A stretch of DNA of 64,000 nucleotides from Escherichia coli. GTDB lineage: Bacteria; Pseudomonadota; Gammaproteobacteria; Enterobacterales; Enterobacteriaceae. Each line of letters begins with the position of its first letter. The first letter of the stretch is position 1. Made by a program: the position numbers and the translations under genes. The stretch lies in the NCBI RefSeq assembly GCF_001677475.2, contig NZ_CP015229.1; one strand, 5' to 3'. This document shows positions 17,194-17,421 of the stretch, one piece after another. The notes under the pieces were generated by a model. It was not told where the DNA came from and made no database searches. It was given only the letters and a program-made list of their open reading frames with translations.

Positions 17194-17199
17194 TCCAAT

Positions 17200-17385
17200 C
17201 CCACCTCTCCACATGGAGAAGGTGGGGCTTATTGCCTGATGCGCTACGCTTACCAGGCCTACAAAACAAAGCGCAGTTTGTTGAATTTGCACGTTCTTGT
17301 AGGCCGGATAAGGCGTTTACGCCGCATCCGGCGCGGCCCCTCTCCACATGGAGAGGGTTTGGGTGAGGGAAAAGCCTCACCCCAG
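17200..17385. repeat. mtlA-mtlD intercistronic BIME: two REP units flanked by palindromic hairpins
   Basis: Hairpin cccacctctcc-acat-ggagaaggtgggg (17200-17227); REP gcctgatgcgctacgcttaccaggcctac (17234-17262); REP gtaggccggataaggcgtttacgccgcatccggc (17299-17332); perfect hairpin ccctctcc-acat-ggagaggg (17338-17357); hairpin ggtgagg-gaaaag-cctcacc (17362-17381). Confidence 0.65.
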
Positions 17386-17421
17386 CCCTCTCGGGTAAAA
17401 ACATTGATGAAGGTTAATACT

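Follow-up and report, generated by a model that had tools for sequence, protein, structure and literature searches.

The window analysed here is a 64-kb stretch of Escherichia coli DNA that contains the mtlADR operon. Its mtlA reading frame ends in a TAA codon at 17191–17193 and mtlD begins at 17422, so that the mtlA–mtlD spacer occupies 17194–17421 (228 nt). The following features are referred to throughout.

17191–17193, plus strand: mtlA stop codon TAA (open reading frame 15280–17193; mtlA is annotated in matching E. coli records).
17200–17227, plus strand: left copy, a hairpin CCCACCTCTCC-ACAT-GGAGAAGGTGGG(G) that begins 6 nt past the mtlA stop.
17204–17223, plus strand: direct repeat copy 1, CCTCTCCACATGGAGAAGGT (20 nt; 0 expected by chance).
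About 17234–17262, plus strand: REP 1, the left unit of the BIME, GCCTGATGCG...CAGGCCTAC (inverted repeats I3, I4 and I7).
17263–17298, no strand assigned: linker between the REPs, defined from the sequence (IHF pattern scan negative).
About 17299–17332, minus strand: REP 2, GTAGGCCGGATAAGGCGTTTACGCCGCATCCGGC, inverted with respect to REP 1 (inverted repeat I5, with 14-nt arms that are 86% complementary).
17338–17357, plus strand: right copy, which is hairpin A (C1:G1), CCCTCTCC/ACAT/GGAGAGGG; it contains direct repeat copy 2.
17338–17395, plus strand: BoxC / PIT / TMECO-like element in inverted-pair form (relaxed pattern and orthologues).
17351–17392, plus strand: alternative long hairpin B (G1+G2 with C2+C1'), which excludes hairpin A (inverted repeat I2).
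17361–17382, plus strand: third hairpin, G2:C2, GGGTGAGG / CCTCACCC (inverted-repeat search and folding; compensatory changes fall here).
17396–17421, plus strand: mtlD leader TAAAAACATTGATGAAGGTTAATACT, conserved, with the Shine-Dalgarno sequence GAAGG at 17409–17413.
17422–17424, plus strand: mtlD start codon; the translation matches MtlD over residues 1–382.

Two nearly identical 20-nt sequences bracket the REP pair. Copy 2 (CCTCTCCACATGGAGAGGGT, 17339–17358) shares 19 of 20 positions with copy 1 and starts 135 nt after it. These are the only matches to the repeat in the window at up to three mismatches, and the chance expectation over 100 dinucleotide shuffles is 0.00. An earlier note, made from the sequence alone, had described a palindromic motif occurring twice around two REP units, and this description is borne out. 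The similarity of the copies survives masking of the REPs, the check named in that note, because neither copy overlaps them. Each copy can indeed form a hairpin. That of the left copy (17200–17226, 27 nt) carries one bulged A and has a predicted energy of -18.6 kcal/mol; the right copy (17338–17357) is a palindrome of 8–9 perfect pairs, detected as inverted repeat I6 with 9-nt arms that are 100% complementary. The third hairpin that the note placed downstream lies at 17361–17382, and the nesting of the REP pair, the motif copies and this hairpin within the mtlADR operon is likewise correct. RNA folding, which had also been suggested, shows a spacer much more stable than its shuffled counterparts (-103.8 kcal/mol, z = -6.4, matched by 0 of 200 shuffles). 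A fourth pairing option joins GAGAGGGTTTGGGTGAGG at 17351–17368 to CCTCACCCCAGCCCTCTC at 17375–17392 (inverted repeat I2) and rivals the right-copy hairpin. Scans of 16900–17700 for intrinsic terminators (a GC hairpin followed by a T-run) and for sigma-70 promoters (-35/-10 hexamers) returned no sites. In an Rfam scan at permissive E-value no family reached its gathering score, and the BoxC-like part was covered by noise only.

The REP units are conventional. Both are imperfect palindromes of about 30–35 nt with ends of the GCCKGATGCG / CGCATCCGGC type, and they alternate in orientation around the linker (I4 and I7), the arrangement of a BIME. Rfam family naRNA4, which is REP-derived, gives a partial, sub-threshold match over 17302–17358 (39.1 bits against a threshold of 59.5; E = 2.5e-5). 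The IHF consensus WATCAANNNNTTR of RIP elements (BIME-1) has no match at one mismatch or fewer across 17194–17421, so that the pair cannot be classed as a RIP (BIME-1 with an IHF site) by this criterion. The pair resembles the BIME or REP (REPIN) clusters of E. coli in consisting of two inverted REPs and a linker and in belonging to a dispersed family: a 421-nt megablast query spanning the spacer (17100–17520) matches each E. coli genome at a median of 22 places. It also resembles them in that the number of units varies by strain and the whole BIME is missing from some. Presence/absence and expansion polymorphism of BIMEs in E. coli was reportedly described by Bachellier et al. in Genetics in 1997. 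The REP/BIME part and its polymorphism are thus of an ordinary, known kind, variable among E. coli. The mtl BIME differs from these clusters in that a duplicated arm from another family of repeats brackets it, and where the BIME is lost the deletion tracks that duplication exactly (135 bp).

That other family is BoxC. The anatomy given in the earlier note stands, but the right copy and the third hairpin, which it treated separately, are parts of a single element of the BoxC / PIT / TMECO kind. These repeats are reportedly the subject of work by Hoyne et al. in 2000. The three names denote one element, with the consensus CCCTCNCCC N3-6 GGGNGAGGG N3 GGGNGAGGG; inverted pairs are frequent and can be partly deleted, leaving a hairpin, which is termed the 'palindrome effect' (Holder et al., 2015; PMC4666352). 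Hundreds to thousands of copies are distributed across Enterobacteriaceae (PMC4666352). At the mtl site the blocks run as C1 (17338–17345), a loop (17346–17349), G1 (17350–17357), TTT, G2 (17361–17369), a second loop, C2 (17375–17382), CAG, C1' (17386–17392) and GGG (17393–17395), so that 17338–17395 reads CCCTCTCC-ACAT-GGAGAGGG-TTT-GGGTGAGGG-AAAAG-CCTCACCC-CAG-CCCTCTC-GGG. The characteristic order of C-rich block, loop, G-rich block, 3 nt and G-rich block is present at 17338–17368 (0.00 by chance). A relaxed BoxC pattern matches the window only here, on the plus strand, and at 17375–17394 on the minus strand, where it picks out an inverted partial copy; it finds no further BoxC copies in the 64 kb. 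The strict pattern is matched neither by the window nor by any Escherichia or Salmonella spacer, because the stems are one pair shorter (8-bp rather than 9-bp) or G2 is substituted. Among the orthologous spacers described below, 24 of 71, all from other genera, match the strict TMECO pattern.

The mtl element is therefore a slightly degenerate BoxC / PIT / TMECO-type unit in the inverted-pair form, and its second half is an inverted, partly collapsed second BoxC copy. With the family it shares the order of blocks, an intergenic location, an inverted pair in which the second copy is partly deleted, and unstable neighbouring DNA. It departs from the family in several respects. Typical BoxC loci differ between strains, whereas the mtl copy is fixed at one operon junction, including that of Salmonella; the mtl unit shows compensatory changes; and the E. 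coli copy fails the strict pattern. A full BoxC pair is found in the lldD–trmL spacer of K-12, and the strain studied here is without that pair. The mtl site is absent from entries No. 1–21 of the 23 in the K-12 table of PMC4666352, and a term search of two supplementary files of that paper did not return it.

A scan for MtlD in species-representative genomes yielded 80 loci, which together with four E. coli alleles gave 84 mtlA–mtlD spacers. The BoxC-type unit and the leader (GGGTAAAAACATTGATGAAGGTTAATACT-ATG) lie directly upstream of mtlD in 71 of the 84. Carriers include Citrobacter, Salmonella, Klebsiella, Enterobacter, Lelliottia, Kosakonia and Pluralibacter, and further Yokenella, Cedecea, Buttiauxella, Siccibacter, Franconibacter and Mangrovibacter. 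In place of the unit, the spacers of Pantoea and Mixta contain two GC-rich hairpins that differ from it. In non-Escherichia genera the BoxC-like stems retain a mean identity to the window of 92% and the mtlD leader 83%, against 93%, 94% and 57% for the first, second and third codon positions of mtlD. The stems are thus as conserved as codon positions 1 and 2 of the adjacent gene.

Constraint is equally visible within the species. The 69-nt core at 17353–17421 is single-copy by megablast and identical in 5320 of 5404 E. coli genomes, whereas two 69-nt coding windows from the flanks, used as controls, are identical in only 870 of 5405 and 122 of 5070. The comparison of the spacer across E. coli proposed in the earlier note accordingly gives a divided answer: the core is identical in 98% of genomes, and the BIME with the left copy is missing from about 19%. 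These results show that 17338–17421 is an old, vertically inherited BoxC-type double hairpin with the mtlD leader, under strong purifying selection. REP and BoxC repeats are both known kinds of element; for the conservation of the mtlA–mtlD element across genera no earlier description was found in the searchable literature.

Uniformity of this kind might also be expected of a non-functional selfish repeat kept alike by homogenisation with other BoxC copies or by repeated homing. BoxC is indeed multi-copy across Enterobacteriaceae (PMC4666352), and Cedecea, Franconibacter and some Enterobacter strains carry additional BoxC copies in this very spacer. The half that is inverted and truncated (CCTCACCC-CAG-CCCTCTC-GGG) and the leader, however, are locus-specific, conserved and single-copy in E. 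coli, and Salmonella, for which an absence of TMECO copies is reported (PMC4666352), retains the element. Both points make homogenisation with other copies less likely. The position and orientation of the element are moreover fixed across 55 aligned spacers, and within E. coli the coding DNA on its flanks varies far more. We regard a selfish origin of the conservation as improbable.

The conserved core can fold in two mutually exclusive ways, because G1 (GGAGAGGG) can pair either with C1 upstream or with C1' downstream. (i) In state A three hairpins form, C1:G1, G2:C2 and CCC:GGG, with a predicted energy of -42.4 kcal/mol in the short allele, which lacks the BIME. (ii) In state B a single long hairpin forms, predicted at -38.5 kcal/mol in the same allele once the 15 nt that follow the stop are blocked. 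Both are supported by comparison. Hairpin A is present in 55 of 55 aligned orthologues with 7–14 bp (median 9), and in K. michiganensis an insertion of GA in G1 is matched by an insertion of TC in C1. In the alignment of these 55 sequences 91.4% of the cells of the long hairpin are paired and seven pairs have changed on both sides. These values are reached by 0 of 500 shuffles, and sliding the partner by one to three columns lowers the pairing to 36–58%. Compensatory changes include TTA/CAG to TTC/GAA in K. oxytoca, TTA/CAG to CCA/TGG in Siccibacter colletis, and GGGTGAGGG/CCCTCACCC to GGGAAAGGG/CCCTTTCCC in Franconibacter. All double-sided changes are confined to the G2:C2 and linker part of the helix, and since G1 and C1' hardly vary, the covariation amounts to few independent events. 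Conservation is highest in G1, the block with two possible partners (0.997), followed by G2 (0.954), C1' (0.949) and C2 (0.895).

The near-invariance of G1, beside a highly polymorphic spacer, would also suit an element that works as DNA, through an intrastrand triplex (H-DNA), a cruciform or a protein-binding site, and not as RNA. BoxC/TMECO oligonucleotides form stable triplexes in vitro and BoxC/TMECO loci are associated with local genetic variability; no triplex signature, however, was seen in duplex DNA or in vivo (PMC4666352). At the mtl site, changes in G2 are compensated in its Watson-Crick partner C2; a G·G-C triplex would call for compensation in G1 or C1, which is not what is seen, so that hairpins fit better than the published triplex model. 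The strand bias of the variation points the same way. Non-Watson-Crick cells outside the linker comprise 33 G·U against 5 A·C when read on the mRNA-sense strand, a bias unexpected for a double-stranded cruciform or duplex binding site and one that favours folding of the sense strand. A DNA-level role is therefore unlikely, if somewhat less so than a selfish origin. The evidence shows that the conserved core is a structured sense-strand element under strong constraint. The mtlD Shine-Dalgarno sequence is free in both predicted states, and a direct translational switch on mtlD is hence not evident.

The left copy has a different history. Of 5426 E. coli genomes, 4388 (about 81%) have it, in each case once and only at mtlA, and among the fetched spacers it is restricted to Escherichia. 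In K-12-type alleles it reads CCCTCTCC-ACAT-GGAGAAGG-T-GGGG, the left copy of the window being one C short (CCTCTCC); the right copy reads CCCTCTCC-NNNN-GGAGAGGG-TTT-GGGT. The left copy is thus a truncated local duplicate of the first BoxC hairpin, comprising C1, the loop, G1 and the first G's of G2. It ends inside G2 and has lost TT, and its end pairs with the pre-existing flank CCCACC. Import from another BoxC–BIME junction was considered and rejected, as the sequence is unique to mtl in E. coli; its occurrence once per genome, only after mtlA, is the reason for preferring local duplication.

Two further Escherichia lineages, E. albertii and a second divergent one, also have the left copy and a BIME. 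The identity of their mtlD third codon positions to the window is 0.73 and 0.75, respectively, and this divergence indicates that the left copy is old in both and not a recent transfer. The left hairpin of E. albertii has been kept through U-A and G·U changes. Taken with its absence from many E. coli genomes, this distribution shows that 17200–17337 (left copy and BIME) is a later, Escherichia-only layer that is dispensable.

Spacer length in E. coli follows the number of REPs. Allele shares were estimated from an evenly spaced sample of genomes.

94 nt, no BIME: about 18% of the sample.
228–229 nt, two REPs: about 62% of the sample.
318–319 nt, four REPs: about 15% of the sample.
419 nt, six REPs: rare.

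Counts over all genomes agree: 5404 have the core and 4388 the left copy, which puts the short form at about 19% of E. coli. The 94-nt allele is the long allele minus exactly 135 bp, one repeat period, and its junctions fall into at least three types. The junction CCTA-CCCTCTCC-TCAC-GGAGAGGG is found in O157:H7 SS TX 754-1, N3 and LR-25, and CCCT-CCCTCTCC-ACAT-GGAGAGGG in MSB1_4I. A third type, CCCA-CCCTCTCC-ACAT-GGAGAGGG in TR01, combines the flank and loop of the left side with the G block of the right copy. Short and long alleles can lie in nearly identical surroundings: LR-25 (short) and MLI107 (long) differ at 1 of 790 flanking mtlD positions.

The earlier note had offered the flanking direct repeat as a possible mobility signature. 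In its developed form this reading takes the repeats for a target-site duplication made by transposition of the REP pair (BIME/REPIN), and the 94-nt allele for the untouched empty site. The short allele does have exactly one repeat copy between left and right flanks like those of the long allele, and it matches the insertion-free spacers of other genera in length and layout. The repeat, however, measures 20 to about 27 nt and is contained in a conserved hairpin that looks functional and of which the left copy is a duplicate. To our knowledge, REP mobilisation of the RAYT / IS200-IS605 type makes no target duplication. In other genera the same stretch between the mtlA stop and C1 has received different insertions, in no case with a duplication. 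Citrobacter and Salmonella have single REPs there, and Phytobacter, Cedecea and Dryocola have REP pairs; C. werkmanii, C. youngae and strain RIT691 have an ERIC element; Cedecea neteri, Franconibacter and some Enterobacter strains have additional BoxC copies; and Klebsiella, Superficieibacter and Siccibacter have unrelated hairpins. The long form, left copy included, was already present, and has diverged, in E. albertii and the second Escherichia lineage, and a single ancestral empty site does not predict three junction types, one of them hybrid. On balance, target-site duplication is improbable. Of the mobility claim it stands that the repeats delimit a 135-bp presence/absence polymorphism; the pattern fits deletion better, and the remainder of the claim is mostly unsupported.

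The outgroup evidence, the junction types and the near-identity of LR-25 and MLI107 are most simply explained by recurrent deletion, in which recombination or slippage joined the two copies at varying crossover points. We infer that the long form is ancestral within E. coli, on the strength of two outgroup lineages, E. albertii and the second divergent Escherichia lineage. The loop next to G1 may record further exchange between the copies. It is TCAC in 90% of genomes and ACAT, as in the left copy, in 478 of 5350, including the window, which is why the copies are 19/20 identical in the window and 18/21 in K-12. The ACAT of the right loop may have been copied from the left copy by gene conversion. 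Such conversion is not required, since the TCAT of E. albertii is one step from both ACAT and TCAC.

Taken together, a composite of two layers is the reading we favour, and we consider it rather probable: an old, conserved BoxC core, to which Escherichia later added a BIME and a duplicate, with repeat-driven deletion and a role in the mRNA. The proposed course is as follows. (i) Entry or rearrangement of a BIME next to or within the BoxC unit would have produced the long form. (ii) Only those products that kept an intact BoxC unit and leader beside mtlD would have survived. (iii) The broken copy would then have matured into the 12-bp hairpin 6 nt past the mtlA stop. (iv) The repeat copies would serve as substrates for recombination or slippage, by which 135 bp would be removed repeatedly to give the 94-nt spacer. 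(v) The conserved element would act in the mtlADR mRNA, and not as a terminator or promoter. (vi) There it would form an intercistronic structural barrier or switch that sets how stable the mtlA cistron is and how efficiently termination proceeds, and through these the mtlA:mtlD output. The two REPs and the left hairpin would contribute to this role but be dispensable.

A barrier or switch between the cistrons is favoured by the hairpins close to the stop codon, by reported effects of REPs and by the shift in the predicted fold when the region after the stop is blocked. C1, and hence hairpin A, starts 7–14 nt past the mtlA stop in 22 of 22 insertion-free spacers. At this distance a ribosome terminating on mtlA would be expected to cover C1 and favour state B. 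Selection may act to retain a hairpin no more than 15 nt past the mtlA stop. There is a simpler reading: the approximately 10 nt between the stop and C1 may be the only unconstrained spot for insertions, and proximity to the stop a by-product.

Two known systems offer points of comparison. In the first, an intercistronic REP is said to stabilize malE–malF mRNA (Newbury et al., 1987). That case is alike in having stable hairpins between a transporter gene and the next cistron of a sugar operon, and the effect to be expected would be on the stability of the upstream mRNA segment. The conserved part at mtl is of BoxC type, not REP. In the second, PMC12306157 cites Liang, Rudd and Deutscher (2015) for the finding that translation of the upstream gene is reduced by REPs closer than 16 nt to a stop codon; it also cites the shortening of mRNA half-life on removal of REPs from 3' UTRs. 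The window shares with the stop-proximal REPs so described a stable hairpin 6 nt past the mtlA stop, although this hairpin is not a REP. When BoxC/PIT repeats themselves were tested, they acted neither as promoters nor as terminators, and no phenotype was seen in vivo (PMC4666352). A search of the available literature on processing or small RNAs at the mtlA–mtlD spacer returned nothing relevant. The 3'-end tables of Adams 2021 list one antisense end inside mtlD and none in the spacer, where an end would be undetectable if the operon was uninduced.

The effect on mRNA stability or on the mtlA:mtlD expression ratio that the earlier note had thought probable is therefore best called plausible. 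The evidence suggests that any such effect attaches mainly to the right copy and the third hairpin, given their conservation between genera and their invariance in 98% of E. coli; the REP pair and the left copy, missing in about 19%, would have far less part in it. A stronger proposal may be put forward tentatively, as a possibility well short of probable: the BoxC-type unit would be a conserved cis-acting mRNA element whose two folds are set by the ribosome terminating on mtlA, and which would thereby control processing, stability or downstream expression in the mannitol operon. It might even be the functional ancestor of the dispersed family.

The BoxC-type core is the more interesting part of this spacer, more so than the REPs, and is worth further work. 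The locus also shows how short direct repeats beside REP clusters yield recurrent, precise intergenic indels. We know of no function assigned to BoxC / PIT / TMECO repeats since the 1990s. The mtl copy, with its fixed position, its conservation at the level of coding sequence and its pairing-preserving changes, provides a concrete and easily manipulated test case, and since the natural alleles (0, 2, 4 and 6 REPs) share the core, the contribution of the REP pair is separable from that of the core. If the reading as an mRNA switch with two folds is true, it would give a BoxC/PIT/TMECO unit its first function.

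The haplotype of the window at the mtl locus was assessed by comparing positions 16400-18200 with sampled complete genomes of E. coli (comparison loci L088-L095). Over 1580 positions of mtlA and mtlD flanking the spacer, the window shows no fewer than 31 differences from each of these genomes. Its mtlA-mtlD spacer is almost the same as in strain 118UI. The combination of diverged flanks with a 118UI-like spacer suggests that the haplotype at this locus is mosaic or uncommon. A short repetition is also present near the end of mtlA:

window 17161-17178: 9-nt tandem repeat, GAAGTGCTG/GAACTGCTG, within the mtlA 3' end

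This repeat is coding sequence (E-V-L-E-L-L) and is probably trivial. Elsewhere in the species, mtlA of strain RR1 (NZ_CP011113.2; L003) is annotated as a frameshifted pseudogene, in keeping with mtl-1, a marker of HB101/RR1 strains.

A BoxC element distinguishes the window from K-12 in the spacer between lldD and trmL, 12.5 kb from the mtl site:

L098 11019-11215: K-12 locus with a full BoxC inverted pair in the lldD-trmL spacer
window 29938-29960: lldD-trmL spacer, with a BoxC remnant

The window lacks 127 nt of the K-12 pair; the last G-block is all that remains of it, immediately 3' of the lldD stop codon (TAG-T-TGGGGTGAGGGG). The difference between K-12 and the window is a typical BoxC presence/absence polymorphism.

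The mtlA-mtlD spacers of other genera vary in content. Those of Pantoea, Mixta and relatives (L068-L084) carry, in place of the BoxC-like unit found upstream of mtlD, two GC-rich hairpins in tandem, GGGGCGGGCAAGCCCGTCCC and GGGGCGGATTTGCCCGCCC followed by TTT, the second of which looks terminator-like. Spacer length is nearly uniform, at 91-99 nt in most, and one Mixta spacer (L084) measures 67 nt and has a single hairpin. Citrobacter werkmanii, C. youngae and Enterobacteriaceae RIT691 (L012, L013, L046) carry an ERIC/IRU-like element of approximately 127 nt (core GTGAATCCCCAGGAGC...GTGACTGGGGTGAGCG) between the mtlA stop codon and the conserved BoxC-like unit, at the position occupied by the BIME in Escherichia. 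Extra BoxC copies, full or partial and some of them reversed, lie directly 3' of the mtlA stop codon and upstream of the conserved copy in Enterobacter sp. Cy-643, Cedecea neteri, Enterobacter sp. Ag1 and Franconibacter (L054, L060, L065, L072). In these lineages, the BoxC family appears to be still spreading.
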